Position numbers and translations under genes: made by a program. The notes under the pieces were generated by a model, which ran no database searches, was not told the origin of the DNA, and saw only the letters and a program-made list of their open reading frames with translations. Positions 5,696-19,966 of a stretch of 20,709 nucleotides of DNA are shown piece after piece (the first letter of the stretch is position 1; each line of letters begins with the position of its first letter). Source of the stretch: a virus (lineage: Duplodnaviria; Heunggongvirae; Uroviricota; Caudoviricetes); IMG/VR virus record IMGVR_UViG_2690316109_000015; one strand, written 5' to 3'.

Positions 5696-5898
<203 letters not shown>

Positions 5899-12655: not shown

Positions 12656-12862
12656 TTAGTGATTCAGGCCGTTACCGCGTCCGTCGAGAAAAACTTCTAC
12701 GAGCAAATCACGGGTATAAGTGCGCTCGATGCCGCGATGCAGATAAAGCCGTCCGCGTAAATTAGCTGATGCAGTCCAGGTACCATCTTTGTGTTTGACC
12801 AGCATTCCTGGCATGACCGCGCCGCGATTAACGGTCTGTGTTCCGTAATGTTGATGAACCAT
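12656..12862 (-). CDS. Small protein (68 aa) in the kil position upstream of gam
   Basis: ATG at 12860-12862 with AGGAG at 5-nt spacing; MVHQHYGTQTVNRGAVMPGMLVKHKDGTWTASANLRGRLYLHRGIERTYTRDLLVEVFLDGRGNGLNH; assignment is by position only. Confidence 0.4.
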   Translation of the reverse strand: MVHQHYGTQTVNRGAVMPGMLVKHKDGTWTASANLRGRLYLHRGIERTYTRDLLVEVFLDGRGNGLNH

Positions 12863-13129
12863 AAAAACTCCTGCCCGTAAGCTGGGCTGCTGAACATATA
12901 GAGACTTCTGCGCGTATTCAGGCGGTGGATGGCCGCCGGTTGTCATAACTAAGCCGCCTCGTTGAAGCGACTGAGGTATGAAATGTTGAGTTAATTTCAG
13001 CTGGTCACACCGACGTTCACGCGTCCGTTTCACCCCTCGCACTCCCCGAAGCCTGCTGAAATTCAAACTGCGGATCTAAGCGGTCATCGCAACGGTGAAT
13101 CAGGTGGTTGCCGTATCGTTGTGTTGTTG

Positions 13130-13190
13130 CGATATGGTGATAATAGCTATTGCTATTGGTGATATCAATACTTATTGCTATTGACTGATG
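13130..13190 (-). promoter_or_regulatory. Candidate leftward early promoter (pL-like) with two operator dyads (oL)
   Basis: Minus-strand -35 TTGATA (plus-strand 13163-13168), 17-bp spacer, -10 TATTAT (13140-13145). Two 16-bp dyads AATAGC-N4-GCTATT at 13142-13157 and (one mismatch) 13167-13182; the same motif recurs at oR. Confidence 0.5.
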
Positions 13191-13308
13191 TGTTTTGATA
13201 TTAAATGTTTGATAGCAAAAAGAATTAATTTTGTGACTTGCATCGCATAGCGATAACTGAAGCAGGGATGTGGTGGTTTTTTGAGCGGTGTGTGATGAGG
13301 GGAGGGGA

Positions 13309-13336
13309 CAAAAGAAAACCCGGCACGGTGGCCGGG
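13309..13336 (-). terminator. Rho-independent terminator ending the repressor/cargo operon (tImm-like)
   Basis: Minus strand CCCGGC-caccgt-GCCGGG followed by TTTTCTTTTG, starting 26 nt after the TAG stop (13363-13365) of the 268-aa gene. Confidence 0.65.
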
Positions 13337-13362
13337 TTATTAATTAAATTAGTCAGTTTTTT

Positions 13363-14169
13363 CTACTGTAACATAGAGGCAGCATTCAGCATCTTTTCGT
13401 AATATGAACGCATGTCTTCTTTGCTATATGCGTTGATAAGATTATCAGCGTGTTTTTCCAGTAGATTTAGCTGCTGTTTTGCTGACTTTTCTTGTGCTGT
13501 CGTTTCAGCGGCAAAAATTACAAATGAATCAATATTTGAATTGTATAATTCGTAGGCTTTAGTAATTGTTAAAACACTTATCGCAGCTTCACCCATTTGT
13601 TTTTTTATATTTTCAGAACGAAAATCTAATGTTTCTGTAAGATGGTATTTGCCATTTTTTAACAAAAAATCTGCAACTAACCCTTCTTCATTACTAATTG
13701 GATAATTAGCTACGATTTTATGTTGGGAAAGATCTTCAAAATACTTACTGAAAATTCCATGTTGTATAAAGGTGGATTTTAATTCAGAAAAAACCTTTTT
13801 TTTCAACTGTTTATGTGGCTGTTTTTGTGGGTTTACTAACCGATTCATTAGATCAGTAACTTTAGCTTCGTAATCTTCGTTGGCTTGAAGAGTGAACATG
13901 CCAAATGACGATAACGATAATGCTCCCTTAAAAAGACAAGGAAGAAGTTCAGCATTGTTGATTTTTTGTGACAAATCAAAAAGCGAGGTCGAAAGATCCT
14001 CTAAGTAATCTAAGGTAAGATCTTTGTCAATCGCTTTAAGTTTTGAAACTGAATTGAGCATACGTACGTCTATGTCAGAGTCATGGTAAACGATCAAACC
14101 AACGTTAATCGTTTCACCTTTCTCTAAGTTCGGTGTAACTCTGATTAAGCTGTATTTGAAAGTTTTCAA
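13363..14169 (-). CDS. Hypothetical protein (268 aa), second gene of the rex-position cargo operon; no recognisable catalytic motif
   Basis: TTG start whose first two bases overlap the upstream TGA stop (TCTTGAAAA), GGAG 8 nt upstream; AT-rich; N-terminus MKTFKYSLIRVTPNLEKGETINVGLIVYHDSD; C-terminal third predicted helical. Confidence 0.7.
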   Translation of the reverse strand: MKTFKYSLIRVTPNLEKGETINVGLIVYHDSDIDVRMLNSVSKLKAIDKDLTLDYLEDLSTSLFDLSQKINNAELLPCLFKGALSLSSFGMFTLQANEDYEAKVTDLMNRLVNPQKQPHKQLKKKVFSELKSTFIQHGIFSKYFEDLSQHKIVANYPISNEEGLVADFLLKNGKYHLTETLDFRSENIKKQMGEAAISVLTITKAYELYNSNIDSFVIFAAETTAQEKSAKQQLNLLEKHADNLINAYSKEDMRSYYEKMLNAASMLQ

Positions 14170-15014
14170 GATGTTATCTCCAGTCTTATGGCATTTAGCC
14201 TATCGATTCGCTCCTCGCTGTCCCACCACTTCAAAAAATACTCCTTATGCATTGGTGGCATCCATGCTTCAGGCATAGAGTTAAGTATATCAGATATAGC
14301 CTCAACTCCAATTTTTTCAATTTTGTCAAGGACAGATAATGCGCACTTTCTCAGATCATCAGTGTCGCCAATGAATTGTTTAGCAATCGTCCAGTTTGTT
14401 GTTGTACTGGAGTCTGTTGGTAGTATATGAGGGGTATTTCGTGGCCAGCCTATAACAAAAGAGCTTAGACTAAAATCGAATGTTTTAACTATAACATTGC
14501 CTCGGGTGTTTTCCATGTATAAGTAGTTGTTGAGGTGTCTGTCAATGTTATATACAAACTGATCAAATGCATAAATTGCCCAGAGTTGCTTCTTTAAGGA
14601 TTCAGAAGCATTTGAGAGCAAATTTATCCATTGAGGACTATTGAGACCAGATTTCCAGGCTGAAAACTCTATGCGAGAGCCAAAAACATACTCCCCATTA
14701 GCAATACACTTGAGAATTTTGCACACAGGTGTAGCGATGCCGCATTTTTCAGCTAAATTTGTGCAAAACCATTCCGCTGCCGGTACTTGAGTTGGGTTTT
14801 GTACAGGAAAAGGTGGGGTGGAGCGCATGCTTTTAACTGCATATTCCATTTCATCAGTGGCAATAGCGAAACCAGAAAGGTGTGCTGTGCCTAAGCTTGA
14901 AGGTGTATATTCATGAAATTCTAATTCAAACAAACTTCCTTGCTCTGGTTTCACTTCATCAGTGTTTGACTCTTGTTCTTTCGTCATCAACTTTTTTCCC
15001 CAAATCGAAGACAT
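14166..15014 (-). CDS. Kinase-like protein (282 aa) with HipA/PI3K-type catalytic-loop signature; first gene of the rex-position cargo operon
   Basis: ATG at 15014 with AGAGG at 5-nt spacing, 46 nt downstream of the cI-like stop; motif NIDRHLNN (D-R-H-x-x-N) followed about 20 residues later by KTFDFS (DFG-like); AT-rich. Confidence 0.7.
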   Translation of the reverse strand: MSSIWGKKLMTKEQESNTDEVKPEQGSLFELEFHEYTPSSLGTAHLSGFAIATDEMEYAVKSMRSTPPFPVQNPTQVPAAEWFCTNLAEKCGIATPVCKILKCIANGEYVFGSRIEFSAWKSGLNSPQWINLLSNASESLKKQLWAIYAFDQFVYNIDRHLNNYLYMENTRGNVIVKTFDFSLSSFVIGWPRNTPHILPTDSSTTTNWTIAKQFIGDTDDLRKCALSVLDKIEKIGVEAISDILNSMPEAWMPPMHKEYFLKWWDSEERIDRLNAIRLEITS

Positions 15015-15060
15015 GCGGACCTCTTAAATTTGAACAACATCATAATGATTAGCTAATCCG

Positions 15061-15753
15061 CTACCCATGCTTCCTATACGTCTGCGGCATGCTCCCAATA
15101 ACCTTACCGAAGATGAACACCCGGTTCATCTCGTCTTTCTCGATCGGGTCCCACGGTGAGTAGCTCTTGTTATCAGAGATAACCAGCAGCTTATCCTTCA
15201 TCATTTGCAGACGCTTTACATGGGCTGTGTCGTCGTACAGAAACGCATAGATACCATCACCGTCGAAAGATTTAACCGTGATATCAACGAACAGCAGATC
15301 ACCTGGTTCGATCGTTCCTGACATGCTGTCACCACGCACGTTAATGATGCGGATATTTTCCGCCTTCCTGCCATCGAACATGTGACGAGCATCGTCAAAC
15401 GAGTACTCAACCGAGCGTAGAACTTCTACAAACTCACGGTTGATTACACCCGGCCCGGCACTGACTTCTATATCAAGAACGTCAATTTTGAAGTATTTGG
15501 AATGGCTGACAGCAGGCTTCCCTGATTGTTGACCGTCATTTCTCATCGGGCCTATGCCTGATGAGAGCCATTCTGTTCGAACACCCAATGCATTAGCTAT
15601 TTCAACAATTTTTGTTGAGCCGCGCGCGTTGCCGCTTGTCAGTCTCCAGATTGTGGGTTGAGCTACGCCAGACGCCTTTGCAAGAGCGCCTTGAGACATT
15701 CCAGATTGTTCCATCGCTAGGTTTAAGCGATCAGCAAGAGTTTCTTTTTTCAT
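15061..15753 (-). CDS. CI-like prophage repressor: N-terminal XRE-type HTH, C-terminal S24 (LexA-like) autopeptidase; about 230 aa from ATG 15753
   Basis: HTH MSQGALAKASGVAQPTIWRL; S24 catalytic Ser in VRGDSMSGTIEPGDLLFVD and Lys in AHVKRL; candidate Ala-Gly cleavage site (SAGPG). The track ORF starts at TTG 15789; ATG 15753 has no SD and abuts the -10 element, suggesting a leaderless transcript as for lambda cI from pRM. Not lambda cI. Confidence 0.85.
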   Translation of the reverse strand: MKKETLADRLNLAMEQSGMSQGALAKASGVAQPTIWRLTSGNARGSTKIVEIANALGVRTEWLSSGIGPMRNDGQQSGKPAVSHSKYFKIDVLDIEVSAGPGVINREFVEVLRSVEYSFDDARHMFDGRKAENIRIINVRGDSMSGTIEPGDLLFVDITVKSFDGDGIYAFLYDDTAHVKRLQMMKDKLLVISDNKSYSPWDPIEKDEMNRVFIFGKVIGSMPQTYRKHG

Positions 15754-15863
15754 AAGTTTTAATTTATACGCTTGCGTATTGATGGTCAAAACACGTTTTG
15801 CTATTGCTTGGATTAATACGCATTGCTATTATTCATTCATTGCAATACCAATAGGAATTGATA
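15754..15863. promoter_or_regulatory. Immunity switch region: divergent pRM-like and pR-like promoters with operator dyads (oR)
   Basis: Minus strand: -35 TTGACC (plus 15784-15789), then TATAAA/TAAATT ending about 7 nt before the cI-like ATG. Plus strand: -35 TTGCTT (15804-15809), 17-bp spacer, -10 TATTAT (15827-15832). Dyads: ATACGCTTGCGTAT (15766-15779) and AATACGCATTGCTATT (15815-15830). Confidence 0.55.
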
Positions 15864-16115: not shown

Positions 16116-16661
16116 ATGACTATGCAACCACTTACATACCAACAGACTAGCGGATTTATCCCGACTGCGGTGATAAATCGTTCTCAAATAAAACAGGTGC
16201 CAGGCCACGAAAAAATCCGTGATGCCATCCGCGCCTGGTCGGCTGTAGATAATCAGGATGTCGTTGCCGCACTCATTGTGAATGAGTATCGAGCACAGGG
16301 CGGCGGCACTATCGATTTTTCTGATGATGTCAGTCGTGCACGCCAGAAGCTGTTCCGCTTTCTCGATAACAAATTCGATTCTGAAAAATACCGAAATAAC
16401 GTGCGTGAACTGACTCCAGCAATTCTGGCAGTACTACCGCTGAAATATCGCGGCCACCTGGTTGAGCAGGATAGCTTCATGGCTCGGCTGGCTGAAATGG
16501 AAAAGGAACTCAGTGAGGCAAAACAGGCTGTCATTCTCAACGCACCACGCCACCAGAAACTGAAGGAGATGAGTGAAGGCATTGTGTCGATGTTTCGTGT
16601 GGACCCGGATTTGGCTGGTCCACTGATGGCGATGGTCACCACCATGCTGGGGGCAATATGA
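16116..16661 (+). CDS. CII-position regulator, YdaT-like (181 aa)
   Basis: Occupies the cII position between cro-like and O; segments EYRAQGGG and LTPAILAVLP resemble what I recall of Rac-prophage YdaT. Confidence 0.5.
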   Translation: MTMQPLTYQQTSGFIPTAVINRSQIKQVPGHEKIRDAIRAWSAVDNQDVVAALIVNEYRAQGGGTIDFSDDVSRARQKLFRFLDNKFDSEKYRNNVRELTPAILAVLPLKYRGHLVEQDSFMARLAEMEKELSEAKQAVILNAPRHQKLKEMSEGIVSMFRVDPDLAGPLMAMVTTMLGAI

Positions 16662-18953: not shown

Positions 18954-19706
18954 ATGGATCCTAAATTACTGTATGCCACGTTTAAACGAAATGACGCACC
19001 AGCTTGGCGCTGCCCGAACTGTATGAATGAAACACTGGAGATTGTCGCTGATAGTTTTGTAGAAACTGATTCAAGCGCAACAACTCAGTTTAGAGATGAA
19101 GTATGGTTTGATGAGGAAATGTCGGGAGGAGTATTCAGTTGCGTGCTGCGCTGTACCCGCCAAGCCTGCCAGGAGAAGGTTGCTTTGTCTGGGCAGGTTG
19201 TTGCTGTAGAATGCTTCAATGACGAAATGACGGAGCGTTGGTATGTTTCTGGTTTCCGTCCTAAGTATTTCTATCCACCACTTCCTCTATTCCTGTTTCC
19301 TGAAAAGTGCCCTGAAGATATAGCTGATCTCTTGGCGGAAGTATCAGCTCTGATCCCCTCGCACCCAGCTTCAGCGGTGAACACCATGAGAACCATACTG
19401 GAGATGATGCTTGATAGTCTTGATGTACCAAGAGAGAAAACAGTTAAAGGCAAGATAATACGTCTTTCTACGCATGAAAGAATCACATATTATTCAGATA
19501 AACTGGGACCAAATAAAGATGCATTCATGGCGTTAAAGTGGTTGGGGAATCACGGCAGTCATGGAGGGATTAAAGTCACAAGGTCCTCTATTAATGATGC
19601 CTGCATTCTCATTGGTCATTTGATTGACTTCTTATTCTTAGAAAGCCCGGATGTAACTATTCATATTGAACGGATAAACAACGTGTATGCACCCAAAAAG
19701 GAGTAA
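18954..19706 (+). CDS. Hypothetical protein (250 aa): N-terminal Cys4 zinc-ribbon-like region plus C-terminal HEPN/DUF4145-like segment with non-canonical motif
   Basis: GGAG at 8-nt spacing; Cys pairs WRCPNC ... CVLRCTRQAC; C-terminal LKWLGNHGSHGG aligns with the RNNLFHG motif of the downstream 160-aa protein but lacks the Arg; lower GC than flanks by eye. Confidence 0.65.
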   Translation: MDPKLLYATFKRNDAPAWRCPNCMNETLEIVADSFVETDSSATTQFRDEVWFDEEMSGGVFSCVLRCTRQACQEKVALSGQVVAVECFNDEMTERWYVSGFRPKYFYPPLPLFLFPEKCPEDIADLLAEVSALIPSHPASAVNTMRTILEMMLDSLDVPREKTVKGKIIRLSTHERITYYSDKLGPNKDAFMALKWLGNHGSHGGIKVTRSSINDACILIGHLIDFLFLESPDVTIHIERINNVYAPKKE

Positions 19707-19717
19707 AACGTAACGCC

Positions 19718-19966
19718 ATGTCGAAGCAGAATATTGCCGCTAAAACACAAGAAGAGCGCGAGAAGGTTAACGTTGACCTTGCTGTCTCCTGAGTTACCTA
19801 CAAAGAGCGCCTTAATATACCGGTTATTGCCGAAGCGGTGATGCGTGAGCAGCCTGAGCATTTGCGGGACTATTTTTTGGAGCGGCCACGACATTACCGC
19901 GAGCAGAGCATCGCGCTGCCCAAGGCATCCACTCCTCGACATCTTAAGCAGGAAGGTGAAAAATGA
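19718..19966 (+). other. Small reading frame (82 codons) interrupted by one in-frame TGA (19790-19792), ending in an ATGA overlap with the next gene
   Basis: MSKQNIAAKTQEEREKVNVDLAVS[61 protein letters not shown]; its TGA stop (19964-19966) overlaps the ATG (19963-19965) of the 160-aa gene; no good SD at 19718; internal ATG at 19841. Confidence 0.3.

Follow-up and report, generated by a model that had tools for sequence, protein, structure and literature searches.

HipA-like kinases paired with a DUF3037 protein are the closest described systems to the locus presented here. One such pair, DS-6, renamed HipAD, is a validated anti-phage system whose defence is lost in a DS-6A D139A mutant (PMC13092281). 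Protection by DS-6 against Bas1 amounted to 4–5 logs. HipAD consists of a HipA toxin and a HipD antitoxin, and has been described in phage PhiR5_1 and in E. coli ECOR strains (DeWeirdt et al. 2026). In the Retron-Sda1 operon, a HipA kinase and DUF3037 pair acts as a stand-alone defence; deletion of the kinase abolished defence, while deletion of the DUF3037 gene was toxic (PMC12548924). The HipA-like plus DUF3037 architecture also corresponds to the PADLOC candidate system PDC-M66, and our literature text searches on HipAD, HipD and GevT gave nothing further. HipAD has reportedly been attributed to Brenes and Laub (2025) as well.

We analyzed a pair of genes, A and B, found behind the repressor gene in a 20,709-nucleotide stretch of viral DNA (the window). 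The pair likely belongs, as a divergent form, to the HipA-like kinase and DUF3037 anti-phage systems, and it is carried as AT-rich cargo in the post-repressor slot.

Organization of the locus and its transcription signals

On the minus strand of the window, a cI-type repressor gene is followed by gene A (282 aa), gene B (268 aa), a terminator and the oL/pL region. The repressor (15061–15753, minus strand) contains HTH_3 and Peptidase_S24 domains and matches phrog_4 (E = 9e-70). PGAP places its ATG start at 15753, and the mechanical open reading frame (15061–15789, minus strand) reaches a TTG at 15789. An intergenic gap of 46 nt (15015–15060, minus strand) separates it from gene A (14166–15014, minus strand) and carries a Shine-Dalgarno-like AAGAGG, 5 nt ahead of the gene A ATG (15014). 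A second ATG at 14987, which is the PGAP choice, would give a product of 273 aa. Gene B (13363–14169, minus strand) begins at a TTG that overlaps the TGA stop of gene A as TTGA (4 nt). Translation of the two genes is coupled, and they are adjacent in every relative examined. An earlier note on this DNA had described the gap, the two same-strand genes of these lengths and their overlapping stop and start, and all of these were recovered.

The GC content of the module is 37.0% (40.2% for A and 33.6% for B) versus 47.1% in the remaining prophage, and GC3 is 0.36 for A and 0.30 for B versus 0.52–0.61 for cI, bet and exo. These values bear out the AT-richness that the note had judged without computing it, and the low GC of the pair suggests acquired cargo. 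Rfam and tRNA scans of the module gave no match.

The transcription unit cI-A-B is closed by an intrinsic terminator (13317–13338, minus strand), read from 13338 to 13317 as a hairpin with an 8-bp stem including 6 GC pairs, then the T-run TTCTTTTGTC. It folds with an energy of −16.2 kcal/mol (z = −2.6 versus shuffles), and it is the hairpin that the note had described before pL/oL. The terminator is conserved in sister phages and marks the boundary of the cargo. The flank beyond it (13225–13316) is 84–93% identical in 16 phage records irrespective of their cargo and forms the right-hand edge of the slot. Further on are the oL operator repeats and a pL-like promoter (13140–13183, minus strand). 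This promoter, running from 13168 to 13140, consists of TTGATA and TATTAT spaced by 17 nt and matches 10 of the 12 consensus positions. The motif AAnAnnnnTTGCTATT is common to the oL repeats (13142–13183) and to oR (15790–15830), where the repeats AACACGTTTTGCTATT and AATACGCATTGCTATT are spaced 25 nt apart. The first recognizable gene of the leftward pL operon is kil (12656–12862, minus strand, PGAP coordinates; phrog_294, PRK11354), and the module is therefore flanked by the immunity gene on one side and the early-left operon on the other.

A putative pRM-like promoter (15761–15789, minus strand) combines TTGACC and TAAATT over a 17-nt spacer and matches 9 of the 12 consensus positions. Only 7 nt separate the end of its −10 element from the cI ATG, which would leave the cI transcript with almost no leader. 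Terminator prediction on the minus strand from cI to the end of B found none, and neither a promoter nor a terminator was predicted in the 46-nt gap. This geometry suggests that A and B would be co-transcribed with cI. A promoter-like site within gene A (14515 to 14488), reminiscent of lambda pLIT, was given no weight because the scan gives 5 such sites, versus 8.2 in shuffled sequence.

The kinase encoded by gene A

The earlier note had recognized neither protein as part of any named system, a view that the domain and structure searches overturn. The Pfam scan assigned gene B to DUF3037 and gene A to HipA_2 (28.7 bits for a cut-off of 27), and gene A also matches phrog_3162 (E = 1.7e-66). In the AlphaFold2 model of A (pLDDT 86.9, pTM 0.83), whose residues 1–28 are predicted to be disordered, the top Foldseek matches were CtkA (E = 6e-8), HipA, HipT and the Legionella HipT. 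NCBIfam had no model for A or B, and a PDB sequence search with the gene A family profile returned nothing. Residues D158, H160, N163 and D180 align with D309, H311, N314 and D332 of HipA. Across 26 homologues with identities as low as 32%, these four residues and K61 do not vary. By sequence and model, gene A thus presents a HipA-type kinase fold with an intact and invariant catalytic set. It is a short HipA-family (HipA_2) Ser/Thr kinase, predicted to act as a toxin or an effector.

Pairwise BLASTP of A and B to DS-6A and DS-6B was nearly uninformative, so profiles were needed. Against HipA of HipAD, BLASTP gave about 21% identity over a local match of 117 residues (E = 0.015). With the gene A family profile, hhalign aligned DS-6A over 172 columns with a probability of 96.8% (E = 2e-10) and placed D158 on DS-6A D139, the catalytic aspartate needed for DS-6 defence. 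The window pair resembles HipAD in its gene order, a short HipA_2-type kinase preceding a DUF3037 protein of about 270 aa, and in the 4-nt stop/start overlap, which is also present in DS-6. However, DS-6A reaches 257.9 bits against Pfam HipA_2, far above the score of window A. Similarly, gene A matches the PDC-M66A model weakly (E = 0.0016, 15.7 bits, 41 residues), PDC-M03A being slightly better, whereas the scores of DS-6 against the PDC-M66 models are 53 and 57 bits.

We compared the pair with three other kinds of system. With HipBA and HipBST it shares the kinase fold, the D-x-H-x-x-N motif with a downstream Mg-binding Asp, and the principle of pairing a toxin with a neutralizing partner. 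Unlike these systems, it has neither a HipB-type HTH antitoxin nor HipS. Gene order differs too, with the partner downstream of the kinase here and hipB upstream of hipA; in the window, the gene upstream of the kinase is the phage repressor, and the partner has no HTH family match. Gene A, with 282 aa, also has no counterpart of the large N-terminal domain found in the 440-aa HipA. The alignment covers HipA residues 198–337 only, and the Foldseek TM-scores normalized to HipA length are 0.30–0.36.

The resemblance to lambda RexAB is one of position: two genes downstream of cI and upstream of oL/pL, ended by a terminator and probably expressed in the lysogen. Scans of A and B in Pfam, PHROGs, NCBIfam and PADLOC found no Rex family. 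RexB is a multi-pass membrane protein; no transmembrane segment was found in A or B, whose top 19-residue hydropathy values are 1.07 and 1.27 versus a threshold of about 1.6. Membership of RexAB, and likewise of the Stk type of prophage 933W, was rejected as neither gave a family match in Pfam, PHROGs, NCBIfam or PADLOC.

In prophage 933W, the Stk kinase is encoded in the repressor-adjacent slot, and gene A has the same position and intact catalytic residues. It could accordingly be read as a direct exclusion kinase, as Stk is reported to be, activated by a protein of the superinfecting phage and phosphorylating phage or host proteins rather than being a constitutively restrained toxin, with B as an adaptor. 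We consider this very improbable. Gene A belongs to the HipA family and the Pfam scan found no eukaryote-type Pkinase family in it; a strictly conserved partner gene with overlapping frames is typical of a neutralizing partner; and loss of the partner is toxic in the Sda1 system.

The partner protein and the cargo slot

Gene B encodes a predicted antitoxin or sensor made of two domains, DUF3037 at about residues 1–115 (38.5 bits for a cut-off of 22.6) and a restriction-endonuclease-like alpha/beta domain at about residues 125–268. The two-domain logic is shared with PDC-M66 and with the Retron-Sda1 pair, the latter being the source of the model in which the kinase is a toxin and the DUF3037 protein its neutralizer. 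The PDC-M66B model matches residues 1–190 of B (E = 2.6e-8, 31.7 bits). BLASTP to DS-6B aligned just 22 residues. In profile–profile comparison, the N-terminal 134 columns of B match the HipD family with a probability of 96.3%.

The remainder of the protein differs. HipD's C-terminal half is reported as DUF1829-like, whereas that of B is unrelated to it by profile: hhalign of the two family alignments of the C-terminal halves, in local, low-mact and global modes, gave a probability of 0.6%. Neither C-terminal half had a Pfam match even at E = 10, and the PDB sequence search with the gene B family profile returned only noise (NleH, E = 0.36). The two partners also differ in charge, B having a mildly acidic pI of 6.1 and HipD a basic one of 8.9. 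With an unrelated C-terminal half and a different pI, the role of the partner may differ from that of HipD. The B-type proteins form a family of their own, with at least 211 clusters at 50% identity.

The note had suggested that the system may be undescribed. This is largely not so, as the HipA-like and DUF3037 combination is that of PDC-M66 and of the validated DS-6/HipAD; the locus represents a known kind of system and not a new kind. What is new, on sequence comparison, is the subtype, with a kinase about 21% identical to HipA of HipAD and a partner whose C-terminal half has no detectable similarity to HipD. A further reading, which we consider less likely than not, is that of a separate subtype whose DUF3037 “handle”, the part holding the kinase, has been joined to a restriction-endonuclease-like module unrelated to that of HipD. 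The same C-terminal domain could also make B the effector: as a nuclease or a nucleic-acid sensor, switched on or off through phosphorylation by A, it would stop the phage by DNA or RNA cleavage. This appears quite improbable to us.

The surroundings of the pair are those of HipAD. Phage PhiR5_1 carries HipA and HipD, 100% identical to DS-6A and DS-6B, between cI and the conserved terminator, which is followed by oL and kil as in the window. In related phages this slot holds interchangeable cargo, including the toxin–antitoxin defence pairs HipA/HipD and GevT/GevA, so annotated by their depositors; in 6 other relatives, GevTA or a different cargo lies between cI and the terminator. The limits of the slot are cI on one side and the conserved terminator on the other, and in sister phages it contains other toxin–antitoxin or defence cargo, which agrees with the rexAB-equivalent position that the note had assigned to it.

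A distant homologous pair (29–30% identity) likewise lies directly behind an S24 repressor. In all other loci examined (L008, L010, L016, L017, and L018), the kinase gene precedes its partner and the two abut or overlap. Most of these loci lie within prophages or near mobile-element genes. Some homologous pairs are found away from immunity regions, at a prophage tail-fibre end, beside an integrase and beside an IS element. A 541-aa kinase–partner “fusion” (P0308) was rejected as Rosetta-stone evidence and counted as adjacency only, since its central part looks like sequence translated out of frame. P0022 is a decayed, frameshifted copy. In the phage collection, megablast and tblastn with B found no sequenced phage with the module; only a 43-bp terminator flank matched.

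The pair is present in 24 of 5426 complete E. coli genomes. This low count, together with a toxin–antitoxin-like architecture of overlapping genes with a HipA-family toxin, would also suit a system of plain toxin–antitoxin or addiction type, or one that modulates the lysis–lysogeny decision, stabilizing the prophage or tuning its induction and giving no protection against other phages. Its location in the immunity operon is in line with this idea, as an effect of lambda RexA on the CI switch has been reported (work cited in PMC12894663). We regard such a role as unlikely. Both homologous systems that have been tested, DS-6 and the Retron-Sda1 pair, defended against phages, and sister phages carry defence-type cargo in the slot. 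Moreover, the homologous pairs found outside immunity regions fit poorly with a function specific to the cI switch.

Proposed mechanism and meaning of the locus

Taken from its sequence, the pair is probably a lysogen-expressed, toxin–antitoxin-like abortive-infection system. Of the earlier proposal that it is a defence or exclusion module expressed in the lysogen, the defence part is supported by homology and context, and expression in the lysogen is what we infer. In lambda, rexAB is read together with cI from pRM in the lysogen. By the same route, A and B would be read through from the pRM-like promoter along with cI, and the DUF3037 half of B would bind and restrain kinase A. Infection by another phage would then release or activate A, which may phosphorylate an essential host target or a phage protein. 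The typical target of HipA-family toxins is an aminoacyl-tRNA synthetase. Phosphorylation by A would lead to growth arrest, and the infection would be aborted. Which phage cue is sensed would most likely be decided by the distinct C-terminal domain of B.

If the separate subtype considered above is real, DUF3037 would be a modular adaptor through which a single kinase toxin is connected to sensor or effector domains that can be exchanged, and this subtype would sense a phage cue other than that of HipAD or add a nucleic-acid-directed activity. The window pair and HipAD share the kinase and the DUF3037 half and occupy the same slot, and they differ in the remainder of the partner. They therefore constitute a natural domain-swap pair, which could separate the part that holds the kinase from the part that senses the phage. 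The locus is a further example on record of what the repressor-adjacent cargo hotspot in lambda-like prophages of E. coli can contain. With it, a defence family whose validation dates only from 2025–2026 gains a second and strongly diverged type.

The A-B pair in the immunity operon

The window carries an E. coli lambda-like prophage whose insertion adjoins ybhC, with the gene order ybhD-H-I-J-C, int, xis, exo, bet, gam, kil, module, cI, cro, a YdaT-type cII analogue, O, P and ren. The repressor ORF (15061–15789, minus strand) encodes HTH_3 and Peptidase_S24 domains; PGAP places its start at the ATG at 15753, and a pRM-like promoter (15789–15761, minus strand) ends 7 nt ahead of this codon. 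After a 46-nt gap containing AAGAGG, gene A (14166–15014, minus strand) encodes 282 aa, or 273 aa from the second ATG used by PGAP. Gene B (13363–14169, minus strand) encodes 268 aa from a TTG start, which overlaps the TGA stop of A as TTGA. The two genes are translationally coupled.

No minus-strand terminator was predicted from cI to the end of B. Beyond B lies an intrinsic terminator (13338–13317, minus strand; 8-bp stem with 6 GC pairs, T-run, −16.2 kcal/mol, z = −2.6), then a pL-like promoter (13168→13140, minus strand, 10/12 positions matched), beside which operator repeats share the motif AAnAnnnnTTGCTATT with the oR repeats at 15790–15830. The GC content is 37.0% in the module and 47.1% in the remaining prophage, and GC3 stands at 0.52–0.61 in cI, bet and exo but at 0.36 in A and 0.30 in B. 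A-B is low-GC cargo in the immunity operon, with the conserved terminator as its boundary. Every element that the earlier note had observed is present at its coordinates: the two same-strand genes behind the repressor, their stop/start overlap and the hairpin with T-run ahead of pL/oL. The AT-richness that it had judged by eye was borne out by computation.

Inside A, positions 14488–14515 (minus strand) resemble a promoter with an extended −10 (TGGAAA, 16 nt, TATAGT), which could drive B alone; in lambda, pLIT drives rexB. However, the resemblance may be due to chance, because shuffled sequence yields more sites of this kind than the promoter scan found here.

A HipA-like kinase and its DUF3037 partner

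The family search that the earlier note had proposed assigned A to HipA_2 and B to DUF3037 in Pfam. For A, the pass is narrow (28.7 bits, gathering threshold 27); A also matches phrog_3162. AlphaFold2 models it with confidence (pLDDT 86.9, pTM 0.83), residues 1–28 being predicted as disordered with either start. The structure search, also proposed in that note, returned HipA-family kinases first, with H. pylori CtkA on top (E = 6e-8), then E. coli and Shewanella HipA, HipT, Legionella HipT and type II PI4-kinases. Across 26 aligned homologues, the most distant at 32% identity, K61, D158, R159, H160, N163 and D180 are invariant, and profile alignment places D158, H160, N163 and D180 on D309, H311, N314 and D332 of E. 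coli HipA, the catalytic and Mg-binding residues of that kinase. Because of the fold match, the invariant residues and this alignment, A is very probably an active, short HipA-type kinase. It seems to us very unlikely that A acts in the manner of Stk, as a direct exclusion kinase for which B would be the adaptor.

In B, the DUF3037 domain (38.5 bits) is N-terminal; the protein also matches phrog_5137 and PADLOC PDC-M66B and is modeled as two domains (pLDDT 85.5, pTM 0.54). Its conserved positions are H150, D/E167, K171, H176, E179 and D182, but no canonical PD-(D/E)xK motif could be read. We consider it quite unlikely that B is a nuclease effector under kinase control. When 1.84 billion representatives were searched with the profile of the window-type partner, 788 clusters were retrieved at E ≤ 0.001, or 211 with the cut-off at 1e-30; almost all are full-length proteins of 265–300 aa. 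Judged by these profiles, the window-type partner constitutes a separate family.

Two experimental reports on such pairs were reached by full-text search for DUF3037. DeWeirdt, Mahoney and Laub validated DS-6, in which DS-6A is a HipA-related kinase and DS-6B a DUF3037 + DUF1829 protein predicted to contact DNA; defense was lost in a catalytic mutant, and the supplement gives both sequences, the D139A mutant and 4–5 logs of protection against Bas1 (PMC13092281). The same report states that Brenes and Laub (2025) independently discovered DS-6 and renamed it HipAD. In the Retron-Sda1 study, a HipA-like + DUF3037 pair labeled PDC-M66 by PADLOC gave stand-alone defense, which was abolished by deletion of the kinase, while deletion of the DUF3037 gene was toxic (PMC12548924). 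A purely addictive or switch-modulating role for A-B appears unlikely.

The window's pair is distant from HipAD. Pairwise, A and DS-6A share 21% identity over 117 residues (E = 0.015), and B shows only a 22-residue N-terminal match to DS-6B. Family profiles align A with DS-6A over 172 columns (probability 96.8%, E = 2e-10; D158 on D139) and the 134 N-terminal columns of B with the HipD family (probability 96.3%, E = 2e-9). In contrast, the C-terminal halves of B and HipD reach a probability of 0.6% in all profile-alignment modes tried, and neither half has a Pfam match. DS-6A scores 257.9 bits against HipA_2 where A scores 28.7, DS-6 scores 53 and 57 bits against PDC-M66A and PDC-M66B where the window's pair scores 15.7 and 31.7, and B is mildly acidic (computed pI 6.1) whereas HipD is basic (8.9). 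What is new here, from these comparisons, is a strongly diverged subtype whose partner appears to have had its C-terminal domain replaced. Our literature search, which did not cover Brenes and Laub 2025, found no report testing this subtype.

Mobility of the pair and variable cargo in the slot

The order kinase-partner, overlapping or abutting, was found in every relative examined. Relatives lie near an nSTAND3/Mrr gene in a Vibrio prophage, beside an IS1595 element on a distant metagenomic contig (partner aligned to B over its full length, probability 99.9%), at the tail-fibre end of another prophage, and next to dus in an integrase-adjacent islet. In a distantly related prophage, an S24 repressor once more immediately precedes the pair (29% identical to A, probability 100%; 30% to B), which lies opposite YdaS, O and IstB-type replication genes. 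Across these settings, the pair is both conserved and mobile. Two apparent kinase-partner fusions were set aside: in P0022 (Klebsiella, 326 aa), which looks like a decaying copy, the catalytic loop carries R159C and the partner tail is scrambled, and the linker of P0308 (541 aa, high-GC organism) looks out-of-frame, as a frameshift or an error of gene calling would leave it. Neither serves well as Rosetta-stone evidence.

Among 5426 complete E. coli genomes, 24 carry the 1761-bp query at full length with at least 99.5% identity; the prophages concerned occupy at least two integration sites (ybhC and ynfG). The ynfG-site prophage of NZ_CP062876.1 (L001) encodes cI, A and B proteins identical (same WP accessions) to those beside ybhC in the window, while the neighboring nin-region cargo differs. 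On this sequence comparison, the block of immunity genes and module is one that moves between prophage backbones.

Against sequenced phages, only the 43-bp terminator flank of the query matches. In PhiR5_1 (PV340545.1), the cI-kil interval holds a depositor-annotated "HipA toxin" and "HipD antitoxin" that are 100% identical to DS-6A and DS-6B; PhiR47_2 and Lambda_4C10 carry GevT/GevA, which matches PADLOC PDC-M11, and PhiR68_2, PhiR30_1, PhiR70_1 and PhiR26_1 carry other small cargo. A three-way DNA alignment showed that kil, leader and terminator are conserved, that operators vary with immunity type, and that similarity stops exactly at the terminator. Given this differing cargo and the end of similarity, the rexAB-equivalent slot is a cargo hotspot in this phage group, and a HipA-kinase + DUF3037 system is a documented occupant. 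The earlier note's suggestion that the pair may be undescribed is therefore unsupported, because the architecture and even the position are already published (DS-6/HipAD, PDC-M66, PhiR5_1).

Neighboring features and proposed function

At the cII position, 16116–16661 (plus strand) encodes a YdaT_toxin-domain protein (99 bits); sister-phage depositors call the gene there cII. Because of this domain, the immunity region belongs, by sequence, to the Rac-like YdaS/YdaT type rather than to that of lambda with its cII. The interval from the pL-like promoter to kil (12863–13140, minus strand) contains no N-like gene and gave no Rfam match. The leader there, about 270 nt, is highly conserved among sister phages, and a mechanical ORF (12656–13066) extends kil upstream; an early-left antitermination mechanism is not evident in this phage group. 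The start of the nin region is another site of accessory or defense-type cargo in lambda-like phages. Here, just past P and ren, 18954–19706 (plus strand) encodes a 250-aa DUF4145-domain protein (Pfam E = 2e-11), at whose position L001, with the same immunity region, has a DUF4041 protein. At about 19718–19966 (plus strand), PGAP annotates, in a near-identical genome record, a phage-borne homologue of the DNA polymerase III theta subunit as a pseudogene interrupted by an internal stop. The chromosomal ybhJ-ybhC spacer contains an Rfam naRNA4 (5774–5844, plus strand, 60.7 bits), a REP-derived nucleoid-associated RNA unrelated to the prophage.

The defense or exclusion role that the earlier note had proposed for the pair gains from the HipA and DUF3037 homologies and from the slot context, which are consistent with it. 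In the lysogen, A and B would be transcribed from the pRM-like promoter, and A would be neutralized by B through the shared DUF3037 half. Infection would release or activate the kinase, whose substrate may be a phage protein or an essential factor of the host. Which cue the pair answers to most likely depends on B's divergent C-terminal domain. We consider it probable that A-B works in this way, as a lysogen-transcribed kinase restrained by its partner that would abort infection.
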